Shown: positions 1-7,085 of the stretch, piece after piece | Layout: each line of letters opens with the position of its first letter | Position numbering within the stretch: position 1 is the stretch's first letter | IMG/VR virus record: IMGVR_UViG_3300038335_000079 | Span: 1-7,085 of that record | Direction: 5' to 3' (one strand) | DNA length: 7,085 bases | DNA from: a virus | The notes under the pieces: generated by a model | Databases searched by the model: none | What the model was told of the DNA's origin: nothing | Seen by the model: the letters and a program-made list of their open reading frames with translations, nothing else | Position numbers and translations under genes: made by a program

Positions 1-98
1 GTCACGATATCGGTAACATCCACGGCAGCCGATGCGAGGCCAGCAGCGAGCGACAGACCGCCAGCGACGGCGGATTGGTACAGGGTCTTAACTTTCAT
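1..98 (-). CDS. 5' portion of the major coat protein gene; redundant copy of 6959-7056 created by the overlap
   Basis: ATG (cat on the plus strand) at 96-98 and downstream codons are identical to the start of the 6856-7056 ORF. The copy is truncated by the window edge. Confidence 0.85.
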   Translation of the reverse strand, partial: MKVKTLYQSAVAGGLSLAAGLASAAVDVTDIV

Positions 99-127
99 TT
101 CTACGACTCCTTTTCATCAGGAAGATT
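1..127. repeat. Terminal direct repeat, copy 1 (identical to 6959-7085); circular-contig overlap
   Basis: Base-by-base comparison by eye shows 1-127 equal to 6959-7085. The offset is 6,958 bp. The length of 127 nt is a common maximum assembler k-mer. Confidence 0.95.
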
Positions 128-340
128 GCCAACTCGGGCGAGCTGGCGAACGATATAACCGAGGCACCAGACCGCGAGAATCGCCCCGCTGATCTGCCCG
201 GCTTCTTCACTGGACAGGATGAACGGCGACGCCGACACCTCGTCCGGTGTTACGACGACCAACCCGCACCCCATCACCTCGACAGGCTGCGGATCGGCCA
301 GCAGCAAGTAGCCCGACGAATCGACTACTACGCACTGCAT
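101..340 (-). CDS. 79-aa small protein with a C-terminal hydrophobic helix; candidate minor virion/assembly protein in the pVII/pIX slot
   Basis: ORF lies between the ssDNA-binding gene and the coat gene. Its ATG is 3 nt after the upstream TAA, and its TAG is 2 nt before the coat ATG. Hydrophobic segment GQISGAILAVWCLGYIV. No family is recognised from the sequence. Confidence 0.55.
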   Translation of the reverse strand: MQCVVVDSSGYLLLADPQPVEVMGCGLVVVTPDEVSASPFILSSEEAGQISGAILAVWCLGYIVRQLARVGNLPDEKES

Positions 341-343
341 TTT

Positions 344-637
344 TTACGCTGCCTTCGGCTGAGCCTGGACACGCTGAGGCAGGATCGAAACAACCCGCGC
401 ACCGACCCGGCGCGTTTCGCGCTCGACCATCAATTCAAGGTTCATCACGTACATCCCCGGCTGAAAGTGCTGCGTGTTTTGCAGGAAGGCTTCGCAGAAC
501 GCACGCTCACCGCTCGGGAGAAGAACCGTCCCTTCAACGATGGTGTAAGTCTTGGTGGTGTCTTTCTTGCCGTTGATGTTGCGATACTTGAACAGATCGA
601 ACGGGAGAGCGATAACGCCGGGTTTTTCGTTTTGCAT
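344..637 (-). CDS. ssDNA-binding protein, gV-like (97 aa)
   Basis: Sits immediately downstream of Rep, as in most inoviruses. RBS TAAGGA lies 6 nt before the ATG. Size is about 90-100 aa. The C-terminal segment QPGMYVMNLELMV...ARVVSILP resembles the Ff gV segment APGLYTVHLSSFKV...DRLRLVP as I recall it. Confidence 0.6.
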   Translation of the reverse strand: MQNEKPGVIALPFDLFKYRNINGKKDTTKTYTIVEGTVLLPSGERAFCEAFLQNTQHFQPGMYVMNLELMVERETRRVGARVVSILPQRVQAQPKAA

Positions 638-653
638 GTCAATTCCTTACGGC

Positions 654-1679
654 TCAGAGAAAGACCGGTTGCGGTGAGCCTGTAGCCGCTGCCGGGAAAA
701 ATTTGTTCCACTGCTTCCATTGGTAGGTTTCAAGGCGATGCGCCTTTTCCAATGCCATGAATTCGTGTGGTTTGGCCTCGCGGCACCAGTCCGGCGCACG
801 CACAGTCGTATAGGTCTCCTCAGATTCCCGTGCAGCGAGGAGCGCCGCGACTTTGCCGACGAGCCGTTTCGGGAGTTCCGGCCTGTAGATGCGCGCGAGC
901 GCACCCCCCAGGTCGCCGCCGTTGAGCGTAAGCAGCATATGCAGACACCGGCCCGCTTGCTTCTGTGCGTGCGCAACCGCTTTTTCGATGGCCGCTGCCG
1001 TCGAATAGGCCACCGTGCGCACGACGCTTTGCACTGGCGAAAGATCAGCGAGGCAGGCATACGCGCCCGCAAGGTATGAACCCGGTTCCCGGAGAATTTC
1101 GACAGGGATTTCCCGATGAACGGCCCGATACTCGACCTCACACCGGAACCACGGAGAATTGGGGTCTTTCTGTTCCTTACCCTTTTCGTAGCCGCGAAAG
1201 AGCTTCCCCGACTCACGCGAGCCAACGTAGAACGTGCAGCCCTTGCCGCTGCCCATATCATCAACGAGTTGCGCTTTCGGCATCGCACCACGGGAAGGCT
1301 TGAAGCCATTTGCTTCGTACTGTGCTTTGCACCAGTCGATTGACCAGTACGCGCCCTCAAAGTCATCCGCTGCAACGTCAGCCCGTGTGATTTTCGCGTG
1401 GCGATCCTCGATAAGCTGCGCGACCGATTCCCAATCTTTGATCTGACGACAACCATCGCCGGTAATCGAAACATGCACCGTATTTTCGTTGCCACCGAAC
1501 GCCGCGAAGCCGCCCGCGAAATCCAGACACACGGCGTAACCGAAACGGCCCCTACCCTTATCCTCGACGGTAACGTCTCCGAACCACTCCGCGAGGAGCC
1601 ATTCGACCCACTTCTGGACGGGTGCGCCCGGTTCGAGCTTGAACGTTACCGACAGGAAGTCGATGAAGGCTGTGTTCAT
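654..1679 (-). CDS. Rolling-circle replication initiation protein (Rep_trans / RstA-like family), 341 aa
   Basis: Motif pattern typical of the family: N-terminal IDFLSVTF, HVSITGDGC, ITRADVAADDF, TFYVGSRESGKLFRGYEKGKEQ and WFRCEVEYR. The start overlaps the upstream ORF stop as ATGA at 1676-1679. Confidence 0.88.
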   Translation of the reverse strand: MNTAFIDFLSVTFKLEPGAPVQKWVEWLLAEWFGDVTVEDKGRGRFGYAVCLDFAGGFAAFGGNENTVHVSITGDGCRQIKDWESVAQLIEDRHAKITRADVAADDFEGAYWSIDWCKAQYEANGFKPSRGAMPKAQLVDDMGSGKGCTFYVGSRESGKLFRGYEKGKEQKDPNSPWFRCEVEYRAVHREIPVEILREPGSYLAGAYACLADLSPVQSVVRTVAYSTAAAIEKAVAHAQKQAGRCLHMLLTLNGGDLGGALARIYRPELPKRLVGKVAALLAARESEETYTTVRAPDWCREAKPHEFMALEKAHRLETYQWKQWNKFFPAAATGSPQPVFL

Positions 1680-1948
1680 TTGACCGGCACCACATCCGAA
1701 TTGATGGGCAGGCCAGCGAGCAGCCGTTTAGCATCCTCGACGCACCAATCACAAGCGCAAAGCTGCCCGCCGCAAGCCGAGCAGGTCAGTTCCTCGTTGT
1801 GTGCTGAAAGCTGCAATTCCGGCGTACGGTAGGACGCAACGTGCAGGCAATCTTGACAGAGCGCCAGATAACGGGTGCCCCCCGCGACCGCTTGCGCGGC
1901 CGGGAAGTGCGAGGGGCAAAGATCAGAAGCAGAATTTTTTTCAAGCAT
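1676..1948 (-). CDS. Cys-rich 90-aa protein (zinc-ribbon-like CxxC...CxxC), unknown function; first gene of the early operon
   Basis: RBS GGGAGA lies 6 nt upstream of the ATG at 1948. There is an ATGA stop/start overlap with Rep. Eight Cys are present: C31xxC34, C56xxC59, C64xC66xxC69 and C11. Confidence 0.7.
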   Translation of the reverse strand: MLEKNSASDLCPSHFPAAQAVAGGTRYLALCQDCLHVASYRTPELQLSAHNEELTCSACGGQLCACDWCVEDAKRLLAGLPINSDVVPVK

Positions 1949-2003
1949 GGCAGTTCTCCCAAACCGTTATTTGAAAGTGCCCGACAGCCCGGACTCCGAA
2001 TTA

Positions 2004-2029
2004 CCCCCGTATTACTGGACGGGGGTTTT
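2004..2029. other. 7-bp GC-rich hairpin (CCCCCGT / ACGGGGG, 8-nt loop) followed by TTTT on the plus strand
   Basis: Left arm 2004-2010, right arm 2019-2025, TTTT 2026-2029. It abuts the first operator-like palindrome. Confidence 0.5.
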
Positions 2030-2096
2030 GTCAGTGCGCGACTGACGGAACGGATTGTCAGTCACGGACTGACAATTTGTCAAGCGGTCGCTGACG
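2029..2096. promoter_or_regulatory. Three operator-like palindromes, TGTCAGT-N5-ACTGACA
   Basis: O1 2029-2047 is TGTCAGT GCGCG ACTGACg. O2 2055-2075 is tTGTCAGT CACGG ACTGACAa, with perfect 8-bp arms. O3 2078-2096 is TGTCAag CGGTC gCTGACg, degenerate. Centres are 27 and 22 bp apart. All lie between divergent genes. Confidence 0.6.
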
Positions 2097-2105
2097 ATTT
2101 ATGTT
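2077..2105 (+). promoter_or_regulatory. Sigma70-like promoter for the repressor gene
   Basis: -35 TTGTCA at 2077-2082, 17-nt spacer, -10 TATGTT at 2100-2105. It lies about 15 nt upstream of RBS GGAGGA (2121-2126) and overlaps O3. Confidence 0.45.
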
Positions 2106-2132
2106 GAACTGCCGAATATTGGAGGACGAATC

Positions 2133-2555
2133 GTGAAGCCGATCCGGTTATACATGGACGAGGCCGCAGACCGCGGACTGGTCAAGAACGACAGCGATAT
2201 CGCAGCGAAACTAGCCGTGACGCGCCAGTCCGTCAGTGCGTGGCGAAAGGGCGAGGCGAACCCCGACCCGGATCAAGCCGCAGCACTAGCCGCTCTACTC
2301 GGCAAGCCCGAGGTGATGGCCGAGTGCATGGCCGCACGCGCAAAGCGCCCCGATACCCGCGCAATGTGGGAGAAGGCAGCGCACACATTGAGCATGACAG
2401 TATCATTCGCTGCCGCTGCCGTTGTCAGTTTGTTATTGACACCCTCGCCCGCAGAAGCCGCACAAGGCTTGGGATGTGCCGCCATGCTGATGTGTATTAT
2501 GTTAAGTCCAGCAGGTATTCAGGATTTTCGATTTAATGCATGCCGCATACGCTGA
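2133..2555 (+). CDS. HTH (Xre/Cro-CI-like) transcriptional repressor candidate with a hydrophobic C-terminal tail, 140 aa, GTG start
   Basis: Strong RBS GGAGGA lies 6 nt before the GTG at 2133. HTH-like segment SDIAAKLAVTRQSVSAWRKGEANP. The gene is divergent from the early/replication operon. The C-terminal part is hydrophobic (TLSMTVSFAAAAVVSLLLTP, LGCAAMLMCIML). Confidence 0.8.
   Translation: MKPIRLYMDEAADRGLVKNDSDIAAKLAVTRQSVSAWRKGEANPDPDQAAALAALLGKPEVMAECMAARAKRPDTRAMWEKAAHTLSMTVSFAAAAVVSLLLTPSPAEAAQGLGCAAMLMCIMLSPAGIQDFRFNACRIR
2480..2507. other. dif-like site (candidate XerC/D attP): degenerate left arm, central TGTGTA, right arm TTATGTTAAGT
   Basis: Compared with E. coli dif GGTGCGCATAA-TGTATA-TTATGTTAAAT, the right (XerD) arm at 2497-2507 matches 10/11. 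The central region at 2491-2496 matches 5/6. The left arm at 2480-2490 matches only about 3/11. It forms a sharp AT-rich island inside a GC-rich ORF. Confidence 0.45.
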
Positions 2556-2624
2556 CGGGCTTGCTGGTTGCGTGGTTGAGCTAGAACACGGCAGACCGCA
2601 TGCAGATGGAACGGATCGACACCA

Positions 2625-2646
2625 AGCGCCGAGAGGCGTTTTTTTT
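2625..2646 (+). terminator. Rho-independent terminator candidate downstream of the repressor gene
   Basis: Short stem aGCGCC / GGCGtt with a GAGA tetraloop (2631-2634), followed by a T8 run (2639-2646), 70 nt after the stop. The stem is short, so it is probably weak. Confidence 0.5.
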
Positions 2647-2994
2647 CGTCCGCAATGCGACGGTGCCAGGTGCGTGCAGTCGGATGTGATCCCGGACGGG
2701 ATGCGCGGAGAAACCAATAGAGATGGCGAAGTTCAGAAGACCAATCTGGGAGCATTAGAACAAACAGAAACGGACTGAAAAAAAGCGTCTGATTATATTC
2801 GATGGCGTTGAATATGTCCGTGCATCGAAGATTTGGCATGACAAACGTCCCCGATCACGGCTCCGATAACAAACCGTGCTTCACAGTTAAATAGAGCCGC
2901 AAGCGGCTAGAGGCGCTCGGCGCGCGCCCTTTGTCGATCTGCGCCACTAATCCGCCCTCCCGATCATCTGCCTTCGCCCCCTTCGTTTTGTTGT

Positions 2995-3068
2995 CCCATG
3001 TTGTCGCCTATCAATCAAGAGTGAAGTGAACGACGGGGTCGCCCTTGATTGAGAGTCGCCAACATGGG
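2995..3068. repeat. Long imperfect inverted repeat / hairpin (25-nt arms, 22/25 complementary, 24-nt loop)
   Basis: Left arm 2995-3019 is cccatgttgtcgcctatcaatcaag. Right arm 3044-3068 is cttgattgagagtcgccaacatggg. The loop holds a small cgac-ggg-gtcg sub-stem. It sits in the largest non-coding region. Confidence 0.85.
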
Positions 3069-3184
3069 CCAAGTCACTACGGCGACGAACTCAGATGAAC
3101 GGAAGGACTAAGCAGTAGAGGTGCAGATCGAAAACCCTAAACGATCGGCTCCGAATCTAGATGCCCGGTAAGGAGAAAAAAACC

Positions 3185-3454
3185 ATGATCCCCGCTAAAT
3201 TACGCCGCTCCGCTGAATTTCTTGCACGCCAGCTCACGCTAGCACTAGACGACATGACCGGCAGGCTGGGTGTAAAAATGAAGAAGGCCCCGGCCCCAAT
3301 GAAGGAAGCAGAAGACTTGATTAAACGCGCTCTGCGTCTGATCGACCGTGCAAGCAAAGACGGCGCATACTCAACTGGACTAATGTTGAGAAGCCAGTGC
3401 AAACAATTTTTCGGAACCGCAGAACTATGGAAGATCGGAACGGCACTTTGTTGA
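3185..3454 (+). CDS. Hypothetical 89-aa soluble, probably helical protein (accessory gene A)
   Basis: RBS AAGGAG at 3170-3175 lies 9 nt before the ATG at 3185. The upstream in-frame ATG at 3161 precedes the RBS and is disfavoured. The gene is on the opposite strand to the structural operon. Local GC is lower. No recognisable motifs. Confidence 0.62.
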   Translation: MIPAKLRRSAEFLARQLTLALDDMTGRLGVKMKKAPAPMKEAEDLIKRALRLIDRASKDGAYSTGLMLRSQCKQFFGTAELWKIGTALC

Positions 3455-3489
3455 TCGAAACGCACCCATCAAAATCGAAAGGAATTTAT

Positions 3490-3735
3490 ATGACCCCCCA
3501 AAAAATTCAGATGTTCGCAGGCATCATCCGTAACGCCCGAAACCAAGGACAGGCGAAAGCACTAGCGGCAGTGGCTTGGGGCTATGTATACGCAGCGCGA
3601 GACATGGAGAAGCTAAGCGAGGAAAACGAAAAAGTTTCGCTTGAAATGATCAGCGATGCACTCGCCGACCGACTGAAAACGAAACGAGACGGATGGCTGA
3701 CAAAGCCGCTCCCACGTCATGAACTAGGAATCTGA
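3490..3735 (+). CDS. Hypothetical 81-aa soluble, probably helical protein (accessory gene B)
   Basis: RBS GAAAGGA at 3477-3483 lies 6 nt before the ATG at 3490, 35 nt after gene A's stop. The longer 3397 start would overlap gene A and has no RBS. No recognisable motifs. Confidence 0.62.
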   Translation: MTPQKIQMFAGIIRNARNQGQAKALAAVAWGYVYAARDMEKLSEENEKVSLEMISDALADRLKTKRDGWLTKPLPRHELGI

Positions 3736-3740
3736 AATCA

Positions 3741-4856
3741 TCAAGAGGCAGGCGGAATACCTGCCCACCCTTTCGGGACGCCCCCCCACGTCGATGCGGT
3801 ACTACCCTGTTGCGCCTGCTGATGTTCGTACCGTGCTGGCGCAGTCTGGACACTACCCTGAACTGGCGAGTGCGACTGAATCGGGCTATTGCCCTTGTTG
3901 CCCGACGTATCCCACGCCACGAAATAGCCCGTTTCCGCGATCTGGCGGCATAGATCCTCCGGCGTCGAAAGTCGCGTGCCCTGCTGGGTATAGCACACAC
4001 ACTTAGACGCACTGGAAACACATGCCGCCGGGAATGGTGCCGTCGTCGGTTCGGTGACAGCATCGAAAACCGGCGCCGTGTGCGGCAGGCCCGCAATACG
4101 CGGCTGTTGCTCTTTCAGCCATTCCGCTGTCGTCTTGTGCTGCTTCCCACCACCCGCCGCTGCACGCTGGAAACCCCCTTTCTGCCCAGGTGCGGCCTGT
4201 TCCGTTGCTGCTGCCGGTGACTCGATATGTCCGGCGTCCTTCCACCACATCACGGCACCCACCACGCACACAATGCCGACGACCGGAAGTGCCCAAAGTA
4301 AATGCACCTTCCACGGCAGTTTGCGCTTATGGGTATGGACAGTTGCCGACTTGTAGGAGCCGATAATCTCCTTCGGATAAACGAAGGTATCCCGGATCGA
4401 GTCCGCCCGACTTTTATCGCACTGCTCTTTCGTCTGCTGCCACTTGTGCGCGGTCGAGACTTCCGACCCGAACATCCGAACCATATGGACGTGTTCGCCC
4501 GCGAGCCGACGAACGTTCGAATCGATCAGCATAGGGTGCTGAGTAACAAAATAAAGGTCGAGACCCTTGTGCCGGTGCGTTTCCATCTCGGCAACGTGGC
4601 GAGGTACAGACGAGCCGTTCCCACGTGGCCGGTAAAGACCCTGAGCCTCATCATGCACCAATATCGATCCATCCGGCAGATCGGGCCATTTAGCCGGATC
4701 ATCAAGCAGTTCCCAACCCGGAAACAGCTCCGGCTTCAAAAGCTCAATCCCGGAATAGAACACGCGCCGATCTTCGTCAATCGCCCGCTGACGGACTTTC
4801 GTAAGCGTGTAAAGCGTTTTGCCAGCCCCCGGAAGGCCAGTGTGAAGGTAGATCAT
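3741..4856 (-). CDS. Zot-like / pI-like phage assembly NTPase, 371 aa
   Basis: N-terminal Walker A GLPGAGKT and Walker B ILVHDEAQ. Central TM helix LLWALPVVGIVCVVGAVMWW, followed by a C-terminal domain. ATGA overlap with the upstream pVI-like gene. Canonical position in the gene order. Confidence 0.93.
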   Translation of the reverse strand: MIYLHTGLPGAGKTLYTLTKVRQRAIDEDRRVFYSGIELLKPELFPGWELLDDPAKWPDLPDGSILVHDEAQGLYRPRGNGSSVPRHVAEMETHRHKGLDLYFVTQHPMLIDSNVRRLAGEHVHMVRMFGSEVSTAHKWQQTKEQCDKSRADSIRDTFVYPKEIIGSYKSATVHTHKRKLPWKVHLLWALPVVGIVCVVGAVMWWKDAGHIESPAAATEQAAPGQKGGFQRAAAGGGKQHKTTAEWLKEQQPRIAGLPHTAPVFDAVTEPTTAPFPAACVSSASKCVCYTQQGTRLSTPEDLCRQIAETGYFVAWDTSGNKGNSPIQSHSPVQGSVQTAPARYEHQQAQQGSTASTWGGVPKGWAGIPPAS

Positions 4857-5200
4857 GACGCCCCCTGCAACCGCCCGAGCATCACGCGGAACCCCTTGAC
4901 GCTGGCAATGGCCAGATGACCGGAGATAGTGATATTGATTGCATCAAACAGCCCGATATACGCAGCCATTCGCATCAACCGACCGGCAATGCCCGTGCCC
5001 GAACCGCCGAGACCACTCAGCAACCCCATAGCCATTTGCATATCCGCGACGAGGAACCCGACCACCGTCTGAAATCCCTTAATGCTGATGAACGCAAGCC
5101 CCGCAGCCGCGAGCATCGACCCGGCTCGACTGGCAAGCGCCGCAGTGATGCCCGAAATAATCGACCCGATCAGAGTCGCACCGATAAGTGGAAGCGCCAT
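4853..5200 (-). CDS. pVI-like minor coat / membrane protein, 115 aa
   Basis: Highly hydrophobic and Gly/Ala-rich with several predicted TM segments. Size and position (between the pIII-like and pI-like genes) match gVI-type proteins. RBS AAGGGG lies 5 nt upstream and overlaps the preceding stop. Confidence 0.7.
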   Translation of the reverse strand: MALPLIGATLIGSIISGITAALASRAGSMLAAAGLAFISIKGFQTVVGFLVADMQMAMGLLSGLGGSGTGIAGRLMRMAAYIGLFDAINITISGHLAIASVKGFRVMLGRLQGAS

Positions 5201-5209
5201 ATCTGCCCC

Positions 5210-6718
5210 TTAGAGCTTGAGAGAGAAGGCCCGGATCAGACCCAGGTACGCAAGGATGTGCATCATTACGCGAATGAACGTACCCACGTCGCACAGAATC
5301 CCGGTATCGAAATTGAGCGTAGCACCCATAACCTCGATCGGCTCGACATGGATGCACTCCGACGTGTACGTGATATAGGACTGCTGAGACTGCTGATAGA
5401 CCTCACTGATGTCCCAATCGAAAGAGCCATCTTTATTGAGCGCCGCCGCAGCGTCCGCTTCGCTAATTGACGAAACAGCATCCACCCCGGCTTGCCCGAG
5501 CGTCGCCAAGTCGTTCGCCTCCCGCATCCACGCCGTCGCGCAGGTCTCCTCCCAAGACGCCCGCGCAATCGCACAATCGACAGCATCCCCGGTACACGTA
5601 AAGCCCGCCGAACACGTACCCGACCACGCCGATTTGTCGCCCTCAGTCCCGACACAAACGGCCGATTTCGGATTTTGTTCGCAGAATGTCGGCTGCGCCT
5701 GCTCTTTCTTTTCGGTCGTTGTTTCCGTGCCGGTCGTATTGCCGCTCGCGTCCTTCGTTTCCGTCGTCTTAGTCGTTGTCGTACTGCAAAGGCTGCCCGT
5801 ACAAGAAGTGGTTTCTTCCGTGGTGGTTGTCGTGCTAGAACCATCCGGGTTAGTCGTCGTTGAAGTAGTCGGAGCCTTCGTTTCCGATCCCGCCTTCGTG
5901 CCACCGTCGATCCCCGACGTACCGGCCCCCGCACCGACGCACGTATAAACCCCATTCACTTCGCCATAGGCCCCGCCGTTCGCGGAACAGTCCTGCGCGT
6001 CCTCGCCGCTGTCGTACCAAGGCTTCGTTTCGTTCTCCGTACCGAAATCCGTTACTTCCGACAACTGCCCGCCATAGCTGTCGCACGTACGACCGTTGAA
6101 CTGAAACGGCCCCGTCCCCATGCAATAAGCACCAAGGGAAATCATGTCGCCATTCGCGTCGTTATTCCATTGGCACGCCACCCCACCCTGCGCAACCGCC
6201 GCGCACCCCTCAACACAAAACGATTGCGACCCGTTGTAACTGCGCGGGTCTTCCACACCAAGAACCGCGTAGGAGTTCGACCGGCCCGCGATCCGACCCG
6301 CCATGTTGGTGCAATCCTTAGCGCATAGCCCGTCCGCCCCCCTAGTCTCGCCTGCATCGCAGGCCGGTGCATTTACGCACGTAGTTCCCGAGATAGTTCC
6401 GCCATAGGGACACTCATATGCCGTTGTAACAGAGCCGCCCCCTACGCCAGCGTTATACCAACCGCCAGACGCATTATCTTGCCAGAGGCACGACGTACCC
6501 GTTCCCGGATATTTCGCATCGCCATATGTCCCCGGATACGATGACGACATTTCGAGCGCGACCCGACATGCCAAATCAGCCGTAGTGACGTGTGTGGTTG
6601 GCGACTTCGTGTTGTACCAGTAGGAGCTCGCCGGGTAATCGTCCGCAAACGCCAGCCCCGCTGCAAACGTGAGAACGAACCCCGCGAGGAAGAAAATCAG
6701 TCGTTTAGCATTAGCCAT
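5210..6718 (-). CDS. pIII-like adsorption / minor coat protein, 502 aa from the ATG at 6718 (ORF track extends to a TTG at 6748)
   Basis: From the ATG at 6718 the N-terminus MANAKRLIFFLAGFVLTFAAGLAFA-DD is a canonical signal peptide. A Cys-rich N-terminal domain follows. A Thr/Ser-rich linker is encoded at about 5705-5899. The C-terminal hydrophobic anchor is GILCDVGTFIRVMMHILAYLGLIRAF. Position is after the coat gene. Confidence 0.75.
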   Translation of the reverse strand: MANAKRLIFFLAGFVLTFAAGLAFADDYPASSYWYNTKSPTTHVTTADLACRVALEMSSSYPGTYGDAKYPGTGTSCLWQDNASGGWYNAGVGGGSVTTAYECPYGGTISGTTCVNAPACDAGETRGADGLCAKDCTNMAGRIAGRSNSYAVLGVEDPRSYNGSQSFCVEGCAAVAQGGVACQWNNDANGDMISLGAYCMGTGPFQFNGRTCDSYGGQLSEVTDFGTENETKPWYDSGEDAQDCSANGGAYGEVNGVYTCVGAGAGTSGIDGGTKAGSETKAPTTSTTTNPDGSSTTTTTEETTSCTGSLCSTTTTKTTETKDASGNTTGTETTTEKKEQAQPTFCEQNPKSAVCVGTEGDKSAWSGTCSAGFTCTGDAVDCAIARASWEETCATAWMREANDLATLGQAGVDAVSSISEADAAAALNKDGSFDWDISEVYQQSQQSYITYTSECIHVEPIEVMGATLNFDTGILCDVGTFIRVMMHILAYLGLIRAFSLKL

Positions 6719-6766
6719 GCCGCCCCCAACACCGCAACCATTAGCCAAAGTCCCATGGCGACCCCC

Positions 6767-6793
6767 AAATGAAAACGGCGGGAATCCCCGCCG
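6767..6793 (-). terminator. Rho-independent terminator downstream of the major coat gene
   Basis: Minus-strand reading is CGGCGGG-gatt-CCCGCCG (6793-6776), followed by TTTTCATTT (6775-6767), 63 nt after the coat stop. This is analogous to the post-gVIII terminator in Ff phages. Confidence 0.6.
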
Positions 6794-6855
6794 ATCTGCT
6801 GACGGTGCGACGTGTCAGCCAAGCTGCCCCGGCGCACCGCCCCCGGATAGCGGAA

Positions 6856-7056
6856 TTAACCGGCCTTCCGCACCCACTTGAACACCTTCGCACCATAGTG
6901 GATGGTGAGGACAGCACCGCCGATCAGAGCAATCGGCGTCGCGGCTGCGAGGATATCAGTCACGATATCGGTAACATCCACGGCAGCCGATGCGAGGCCA
7001 GCAGCGAGCGACAGACCGCCAGCGACGGCGGATTGGTACAGGGTCTTAACTTTCAT
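6856..7056 (-). CDS. Major coat protein (pVIII-like), 66-aa precursor
   Basis: Signal peptide MKVKTLYQSAVAGGLSLAAGLASA. The mature ~42-aa chain has an acidic N-terminus (AVDVTDIVTD), a hydrophobic core (ILAAATPIALIGGAVLTI) and a basic C-terminus (KVFKWVRKAG). RBS AAGGAG lies 8 nt upstream. Confidence 0.9.
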   Translation of the reverse strand: MKVKTLYQSAVAGGLSLAAGLASAAVDVTDIVTDILAAATPIALIGGAVLTIHYGAKVFKWVRKAG

Positions 7057-7085
7057 TTCTACGACTCCTTTTCATCAGGAAGATT
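6959..7085. repeat. Terminal direct repeat, copy 2 (identical to 1-127)
   Basis: See copy 1. It also contains the last codons and stop of the 79-aa ORF (7059-7085) and the first 98 nt of the coat gene. Confidence 0.95.

Follow-up and report, generated by a model that had tools for sequence, protein, structure and literature searches.

Across many bacteria, integrative filamentous phages influence biofilms, virulence and the flow of genes, and to our knowledge the negative-strand arm that lies beside the assembly gene pI is understood in one lineage only, that of φLf with its protein PSB15. On the negative strand of φLf-UK, pI is followed by an XRE/DUF3693 repressor, by ORF9, which encodes PSB15, and by ORF11 (bioRxiv 10.1101/2024.03.19.585677). 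PSB15 is a basic, non-structural protein whose DUF3653 N-terminus binds the packaging-signal hairpin; it also binds membrane cardiolipin and thioredoxin, and brings the phage single-stranded DNA (ssDNA) to the membrane assembly site. Its loss severely reduces the yield of φLf, and ORF9 as well as ORF11 shows a genetic interaction with the packaging signal (bioRxiv 10.1101/2024.03.19.585677). Here this system is compared with an inovirus genome, IMG/VR record IMGVR_UViG_3300038335_000079 (positions 1 to 7,085), and specifically with two small genes of its own arm, A and B, and a large hairpin upstream of A. The whole 7,085-nucleotide (nt) stretch is referred to as the window.

A sequence-only reading of the window had described A and B as a two-gene accessory module of the kind formed by tandem morons placed antisense to the core genes. 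Both genes were indeed found on the plus strand, each with its own Shine-Dalgarno (SD) site, co-oriented with the repressor gene and opposite to those for Rep, SSB, coat, pIII, pVI and pI. They do not form a conserved pair. A is a real, selected gene and represents a family, not described before, of small and strongly basic inovirus proteins that are all-helical and cytoplasmic; the family recurs together with the hairpin in distantly related phages; B is an ordinary strain-specific orphan.

Gene A, its hairpin and its leader

Gene A (3185-3454, plus strand) encodes a protein of 89 residues with an isoelectric point of 10.0, and is defined by its open reading frame (ORF), by the alignment of its homologues and by the ratio of non-synonymous to synonymous substitution (dN/dS). 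The SD sequence AAGGAG (3170-3175) lies 9 nt 5' of the ATG, and an AGGAG-like site is found at the matching place in loci homologous to that of A. The start is fixed at 3185, where the residues MIP are invariant in all homologues, and a longer start at 3161 is unused. The dN/dS values of 0.1-0.35 among six loci, with synonymous sites near saturation, point to purifying selection. A search of 5.8 billion proteins returned ten matches at about 60% identity, and an exhaustive search of 1.84 billion representatives with the A profile returned only six clusters. After profile searching the family numbers 25 members, all of them labelled 'hypothetical'. The named sources (Thauera sp., Azoarcus indigens, Azoarcus sp. 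DD4 and Azoarcus (Parazoarcus) communis) all belong to the Rhodocyclales, and A is carried by just two GTDB species representatives. The family is restricted to inoviruses and prophages of this order (Thauera, Azoarcus and Parazoarcus).

The proteins share the motifs EFLxRQ(L/M)xL, RLIDR and PFFG, and an isoelectric point of 9.8-11.6 is found in 25 of the 25 members. Neither A nor B contains a hydrophobic segment, the maximum hydropathy over 19 residues being about 0.5 against 1.9 in the coat and pVI controls, and A has no transmembrane segment or signal peptide; both proteins are soluble, as had been proposed. The AlphaFold2 model of A, built from 25 sequences, is all-helical with a predicted local distance difference test (pLDDT) score of 83, rising above 90 over residues 40-89, which bears out the helical character suggested earlier. 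The helices span residues 10-33, 38-56, 60-76 and 81-88, of which the N-terminal one is placed less confidently. Neither A nor B gave a significant match in Pfam, PHROGs, PADLOC or NCBIfam, and a PDB sequence-profile search with A returned nothing. Foldseek searches of PDB and BFVD gave zero matches both with a first model of A (pLDDT 63) and with the improved model (pLDDT 83). In these searches the two proteins match no known family, just as neither had shown a recognizable motif to the sequence-only reading. Searches of GenBank phage records by tblastn with A, B and one protein of a second family (A2, see below) found no match. Similarly, no homology of A or B to the core inovirus proteins (pII, pV, pVII/pIX, pVIII, pIII, pVI and pI) was found, and each core gene has been assigned to another part of the window.

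Relatives of the window were gathered via pI alone, and about 120 related loci were examined for homologues. Among loci whose pI is 50-63% identical to that of the window, A is present in L026, L027, L031 and L032. It is absent from L024 and L028, which are both circular, and from L030, L025 and L034, the pI of these five being 52-60% identical to that of the window; L025 and L034 have the repressor type of the window. Because some close relatives, complete circular genomes included, lack A, the gene is accessory and not core. It occurs in more than 15 loci, where its neighbours differ or are missing and where a homologue of B is never alongside, and it is carried on backbones with differing Rep, pI, repressor and integration systems. 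The module of the earlier reading is thus upheld as accessory, A being found in only some close relatives and B in none of them, and is not upheld as a conserved tandem pair. In the Pf-like loci L010-L013, A lies on the strand of the structural genes, after a Cox/HTH_17-like gene of 68 codons that heads the main operon. The antisense placement seen in the window is therefore not intrinsic to A.

Directly upstream of the A unit, nested inverted repeats form an imperfect ssDNA hairpin of about 200 nt (2931-3134). Its DNA fold has an energy of -58.4 kcal/mol (z = -6.1), and none of 200 shuffled sequences was as stable. Across four sequences the consensus structure contains 82 base pairs, 21 of which show compensatory double changes. 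A conserved plus-strand leader (3079-3169, 81% column identity) contains two invariant blocks: ACGGCGACGAACTCAG at 3079-3094 lies within the 3' arm of the hairpin, and CGGCTCCGAATCTAGATGCCCGGT at 3146-3169 lies between the base of the hairpin and the SD site of A. Column identity across the 145 nt preceding A is 81% in the comparison of the window with L005, L006 and L007, and long stretches are invariant. Part of the 3' arm of the 2931-3134 repeats falls within this block, which is more conserved than the codons of A itself.

Exact copies of the motif CGGCTCCRAATCTAGNNNCCCGGT were found in 14 IMG/VR contigs, whose pI proteins are only 27-38% identical to that of the window. In all 14 the first downstream ORF is A or A2 and converges on pI, and a hairpin of 200-230 nt precedes the motif in every locus folded. 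Hairpins in the other loci were sought by inverted-repeat searches and targeted folds. Inovirus loci with an equivalent element, some related and others distant, number more than 15, and diverged hairpins precede the A operon in L001 and L004 (z about -11 in both) and in L008 (z = -7.4). In the Pf-like loci no significant hairpin was found upstream of A (z -1.6 and -2.5). All loci with an antisense A thus have the hairpin, those with A in the sense orientation do not, and the relatives without A (L024, L025, L028 and L034) have no comparable hairpin and no leader. A DNA search of GenBank phage records with the hairpin and leader gave no match. In every locus where A runs antisense to the structural genes it appears, from these comparisons, to be the constant gene of a short, hairpin-headed transcription unit, one that is common to inoviruses whose pI proteins are just 27-65% identical. 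In the subgroup closest to the window, as in the 14 contigs, the hairpin of this unit is followed by an invariant leader. The unit recurs in phages with very divergent cores and offers a concrete and testable handle, and CGGCTCCRAATCTAGNNNCCCGGT can serve as a search motif for finding phages of this kind.

For the hairpin the candidate roles are minus-strand origin, packaging signal and hairpin promoter, and the second leader block may act as the nick site of an origin, as the start of a primer or as a 5' untranslated region. The plus strand between 2556 and 3184 showed no sigma-70-like promoter, and the interval from B to pI showed no terminator. Within the A group the apical stem contains a conserved TTGAC-like hexamer; a conserved -10 element was not found, and nothing canonical is common to the A and A2 groups.

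A2 is a second unannotated family (MAIAANFRKYAEAMALQLVLPFGRP...QWWKDAQ...) of 88-149 residues with isoelectric points of 10-12 (up to 11.9). It supplies the first ORF after the leader motif in L106, L108, L100 and L110-L121. With A it shares just the N-terminal 22 residues or so and the genomic position, and the profile-profile score between the two families is weak (E = 1.4e-3, probability 18%). Judged by context, the A2 proteins are probably distant relatives of A. Since third codon positions vary freely, the N-terminus that A shares with A2 is constrained at the protein level, and its conservation as a nucleotide-level cis-element was ruled out. Searches for A2 in GenBank phages (tblastn), Pfam and PHROGs gave nothing significant.

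Different phages have small, unrelated genes inserted before or after A. L005 and L006 each contain a different small ORF between the leader and A. A 149-residue protein of the XF1762 family (NCBIfam 1e-63, with a weak Pfam match to Mom) is found as cargo in or near the plus-strand A unit of sister phages, and a DUF4417 protein with a 67-residue partner lies between A and pI in sister phages; these two kinds of cargo are located in L001 (5052-5501 and 6203-6799), L002 and L004. L027 contains two identical copies of A with its leader (3124-3462 and 9897-10235) at a spacing of 6.77 kb; this points to a prophage in tandem or to a concatemer.

Candidate roles of gene A

The arm of the window runs from an XRE/DUF3693 repressor with a dif-like attP, through the small basic protein A and the small variable protein B, to converge on pI. 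The position of A, its charge and its linkage to the hairpin lead us to favour, tentatively, a role as a non-structural nucleic-acid-binding factor that would act on the phage's own DNA. Its target would be the neighbouring hairpin or leader, and through it A may control packaging, assembly or complementary-strand synthesis. A would then be a functional analogue of PSB15 and not a homologue. The genomic context favours a role of this type at least as strongly as one in exclusion, anti-defence or virulence. If A does bind the hairpin, dedicated non-structural proteins that recognize DNA for packaging or replication would be generalized across integrative inoviruses.

Several points weigh against this assignment. 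A shows no sequence or motif similarity to PSB15 or DUF3653, and its model has no fold match, so that the analogy is one of position, charge and linkage; Pfam gives no match to DUF3653 in A or B, and hhalign of the A family against PSB15 returns a probability of 0.3%. The loss of PSB15 greatly lowers the yield of φLf, yet A is missing from apparently complete relatives such as the circular L024 and L028. Packaging signals in Xanthomonas phages are hairpins of 20-26 nt inside gII, whereas the element of the window is a 200-nt intergenic hairpin. In L010-L013 A is part of the main operon and is not preceded by a significant hairpin, from which it appears that A can function without the hairpin element. 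Finally, a host-directed moron would likewise be expected to stay within one host order while moving between different phage backbones.

That A is such a moron, concerned with superinfection exclusion, anti-defence or host modulation and directed at a factor conserved in the Rhodocyclales, is possible, if somewhat unlikely. Its expression would then come from the carrier or prophage state or, very early, from the ssDNA entering the cell, with B and the other occupants of its slot as further morons of one island. Inoviruses package the strand that has the same sense as their structural genes; the template for A and B is therefore the packaged strand, and the strand orientation of the arm fits this view. 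So do the accessory status of A among close relatives, its confinement to a single order on varied pI, Rep, repressor and integration backbones, and the clear cargo held by neighbouring slots (XF1762-family/Mom-like, DUF4417 and DUF4124-like proteins and small secreted proteins). The composition of A points the same way. The guanine-plus-cytosine (GC) content is 51.5% for A, 52.0% for B, with 52% at third codon positions (GC3), and 50.3% for the region 3161-3740, against 58-60% (GC3 62-74%) for the core genes and 57.4% for the genome. The low GC noted previously is thus real, although it extends beyond A and B alone to the entire arm (about 2519-3740). Of the earlier reading, the atypical composition is upheld; a recent, random acquisition of A is not supported, as A is stable in a conserved hairpin-headed unit across distant inoviruses. 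The same fixed place beside a conserved cis-element in distant phages is unusual for morons. Moreover, A matches no PADLOC, Pfam or PHROG family, and as a cytoplasmic, uniformly very basic protein it is unlike known inovirus exclusion factors, of which PfsE is a small membrane protein.

It is unlikely that A is instead a second regulator of the switch between lysogeny and production, that is a co-repressor, antirepressor or activator beside the XRE repressor, of the RstC or Cox/Xis-like kind. Such a role would suit a small, basic, helical protein encoded downstream of the repressor and co-oriented with it, and in the Pf-like loci A directly follows the Cox/HTH_17-like gene at the head of the operon. 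A has, however, no helix-turn-helix (HTH) or ribbon-helix-helix signature and no fold match. At least four types of repressor are found beside it (DUF3693 in the window, HTH_31 in L006, a 133-residue protein in L001 and the 68-residue pair of the Pf-like loci), and it is absent from L025 and L034 with their window-type repressor, so that it does not co-vary with a specific regulatory partner.

Gene B and the rest of the genome

Gene B (3490-3735, plus strand) encodes a soluble ORFan of 81 residues with an isoelectric point of 9.5. Its SD sequence, GAAAGGA (3477-3483), is positioned 6 nt upstream, and the gene is separated from the co-oriented A by 35 nt. The stop codon of B is 5 nt from that of the convergent Zot/pI gene (3741-4856, minus strand). 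When compared with 5.8 billion proteins B matched only itself, and no homologue was found in phage records or in the approximately 120 related loci. The interval between the A and pI stop codons differs in every sister phage. In L007 it is 75 nt long with no gene, and in L008 the slot is empty; L017 encodes an 85-residue protein with a signal-peptide-like N-terminus, L018 a 99-residue signal-peptide protein on the other strand, L005 a 181-residue DUF4124-like protein, and L006 an 88-residue protein with a C-terminal membrane helix. In L025, which has neither A nor the hairpin, a 104-residue signal-peptide protein (5809-6123) follows pI and is homologous to the 99-residue ORF of L018.

That B is a chance open frame in the spacer between A and pI is improbable. 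In favour of such a chance frame, B has no homologues, the codon-usage score of its frame (-0.017) is about equal to that of an antisense frame, and this GC-rich genome contains many long spurious ORFs. The codon usage is not decisive on whether B is coding, however, because A, a proven gene, scores as atypically. A plus-strand ATG-initiated ORF of at least 81 codons arose in just 17 of 5,000 shuffles of the 286-nt slot, and this slot likewise contains genes in sister phages. B is probably a real but unconserved gene and not the partner of A, since an ORF of this size is rare in the shuffles, the SD site is good and well spaced within an AT-rich spacer, and the frame fits the gap exactly. It is most likely a moron specific to this strain and not obligatorily tied to A, an orphan occupying the variable cargo slot between A and the pI/Zot end. 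A toxin-antitoxin-like addiction pair or other obligate two-component module formed by A and B, which two small, adjacent, co-oriented genes with separate ribosome-binding sites 35 nt apart in an accessory region might have suggested, is very improbable, as it loses its main support once A and B are seen not to be a co-inherited pair (B has no homologue and never accompanies A, and A is followed by nothing in L007 and L008 and by unrelated genes elsewhere), and neither protein matches a toxin-antitoxin, PADLOC or NCBIfam family.

The window is a complete circular inovirus. Its termini (1-127 and 6959-7085) are identical over 127 nt, giving a circular assembly and a genome of 6,958 nt. L015 (7,099 nt, with an overlap of 141 nt) is the same genome in a different assembly. 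The complete inovirus core lies on the minus strand, where the ORF list, Pfam and PHROGs place an SSB-like protein (344-637), a Rep_trans initiator (654-1679), pVI (4853-5200), pIII (5210-6748) and the coat protein (6856-7056), together with a 79-residue minor protein. The pI/Zot assembly ATPase, which converges on B, is identified through a Pfam Zot match in its homologues, and shares 40-44% identity with the pI proteins of the Ralstonia phages PE226 and p12J. Near and distant DNA searches of the whole window against 50,697 GenBank phage records gave no match; judged by this and by the low identity of pI to PE226 and p12J, the phage is new. Nothing on inoviruses of Thauera or Azoarcus was found in the searchable literature.

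On the plus strand, the repressor (2133-2555; Pfam HTH_3 and DUF3693, phrog_638) heads the arm that contains A and B, and is homologous to the φLf repressor (E = 7e-6). Its C-terminal segment (residues 85-105 or so) is strongly hydrophobic, with a coat-like 19-residue hydropathy of 1.85, and the same is true of the φLf repressor. This segment suggests that the XRE repressor may be membrane-anchored. Between the repressor and the hairpin lies orf106 (2519-2839, minus strand; phrog_27692, E = 3e-8), with homologues in at least seven loci (E 1e-15 to 1e-27). This real, conserved gene overlaps the 3' end of the repressor convergently, and in L025 it is followed by an ORF of 216 residues (6708-7358). 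The gene caller of the original assembly had in its place an 80-residue plus-strand ORF (2536-2778), which is probably spurious.

A dif-like site, ATGTGTATTATGTTAA (2486-2505), lies in the 3' part of the repressor gene, where it encodes the conserved residues 'CIM'. This sequence also flanks the Thauera prophage L006, as the direct repeats TTTGTATTATGTCAA and TTTGTATTATGTAAA (8863-8877 and 17340-17354), which are 8.48 kb apart, and the right-hand repeat lies at the 3' end of the L006 repressor gene. Similarly, a XerC/D site is annotated inside the homologous repressor gene of φLf-UK. As the phage encodes no integrase, it is probably a XerCD-dependent integrating element. A CTXφ-style role of the hairpin as a folded ssDNA attP was ruled out: it is at the 3' end of the repressor gene that both the dif-like site and the junctions of the prophage lie, in agreement with the φLf annotation. 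In L006, sequence is repeated beyond the right end of the prophage (17364-17731 compared with 8888-9048 and 10749-10844), which suggests a truncated second copy in tandem.

Comparison with known systems

Three groups of described elements offer parallels to the hairpin and to its position. The Frpo/ssi ssDNA promoters drive the early leading-region genes of conjugative plasmids and prime complementary-strand synthesis, according to the account of Masai & Arai (1997) given in PMC11541004. As in that system, the window has a long ssDNA hairpin directly 5' of small genes that are templated by the entering strand, with variable cargo following. The two differ in that the carrier is a phage and not a plasmid, and in that no canonical -35/-10 pair is conserved in the hairpin. 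By this analogy the hairpin and leader might form a Frpo-like ssDNA promoter that doubles as the minus-strand origin, so that A, B and the other cargo of the arm would be transcribed first, from the infecting ssDNA and before the replicative form. The filamentous-phage minus-strand origin likewise primes the complementary strand in Ff. We regard this as a speculative and rather improbable extension. In its favour, the occurrence of the hairpin coincides exactly with an antisense A, and an XF1762/Mom-like gene lies in the same unit of sister phages; the missing -35/-10 pair counts against it. If it were true, the hairpin would allow immediate-early expression from infecting phage ssDNA, and the arm would correspond, in an inovirus, to the 'establishment and anti-defence' leading region of conjugative plasmids, with A as its conserved establishment factor.

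In its placement the hairpin resembles the intergenic region of the Ff phages f1 and M13, being a large, conserved, noncoding hairpin just past the last assembly gene on the packaged strand. It differs in having no sequence similarity to that region, and an Rfam scan of the whole window gave no match. We know of no antisense genes reading out of the Ff intergenic region. The Pf-like loci provide a further parallel. In L010-L013 the A homologue follows the 68-residue Cox/Xis-like gene at the head of the main operon, much as the early genes of Pf1 and Pf4 follow XisF; no ORF of Pf1, however, matches the A profile.

The closest correspondence is with φLf. From the similarity of the two repressors and from the presence of the attP in the 3' end of the repressor gene in both phages, we infer that the arm of the window is homologous to that of φLf. 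In this arm A and B lie on the negative strand (the plus strand of the window as written), flanked on one side by the 3' end of pI and on the other by an XRE/DUF3693 repressor that contains the XerC/D attP, and hold the positions of PSB15 and ORF11. The occupants of these positions differ. φLf ORF11 is a membrane protein and B is soluble, and A is all-helical, without the N-terminal β-hairpin of PSB15. A scan for the LTG/WAGFxF/TPE motifs of PSB15 in the approximately 120 loci, combined with jackhmmer, found nothing except φLf itself, and displacement of A by a DUF3653/PSB15-like gene in the relatives that lack A was ruled out, none being present. Like PSB15, A is small, basic, non-structural and tied to a DNA hairpin that would act in cis. 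The window may represent a second solution at the position of the φLf arm, unrelated in sequence, in which a new family of basic helical proteins is tied to a large, covarying hairpin.

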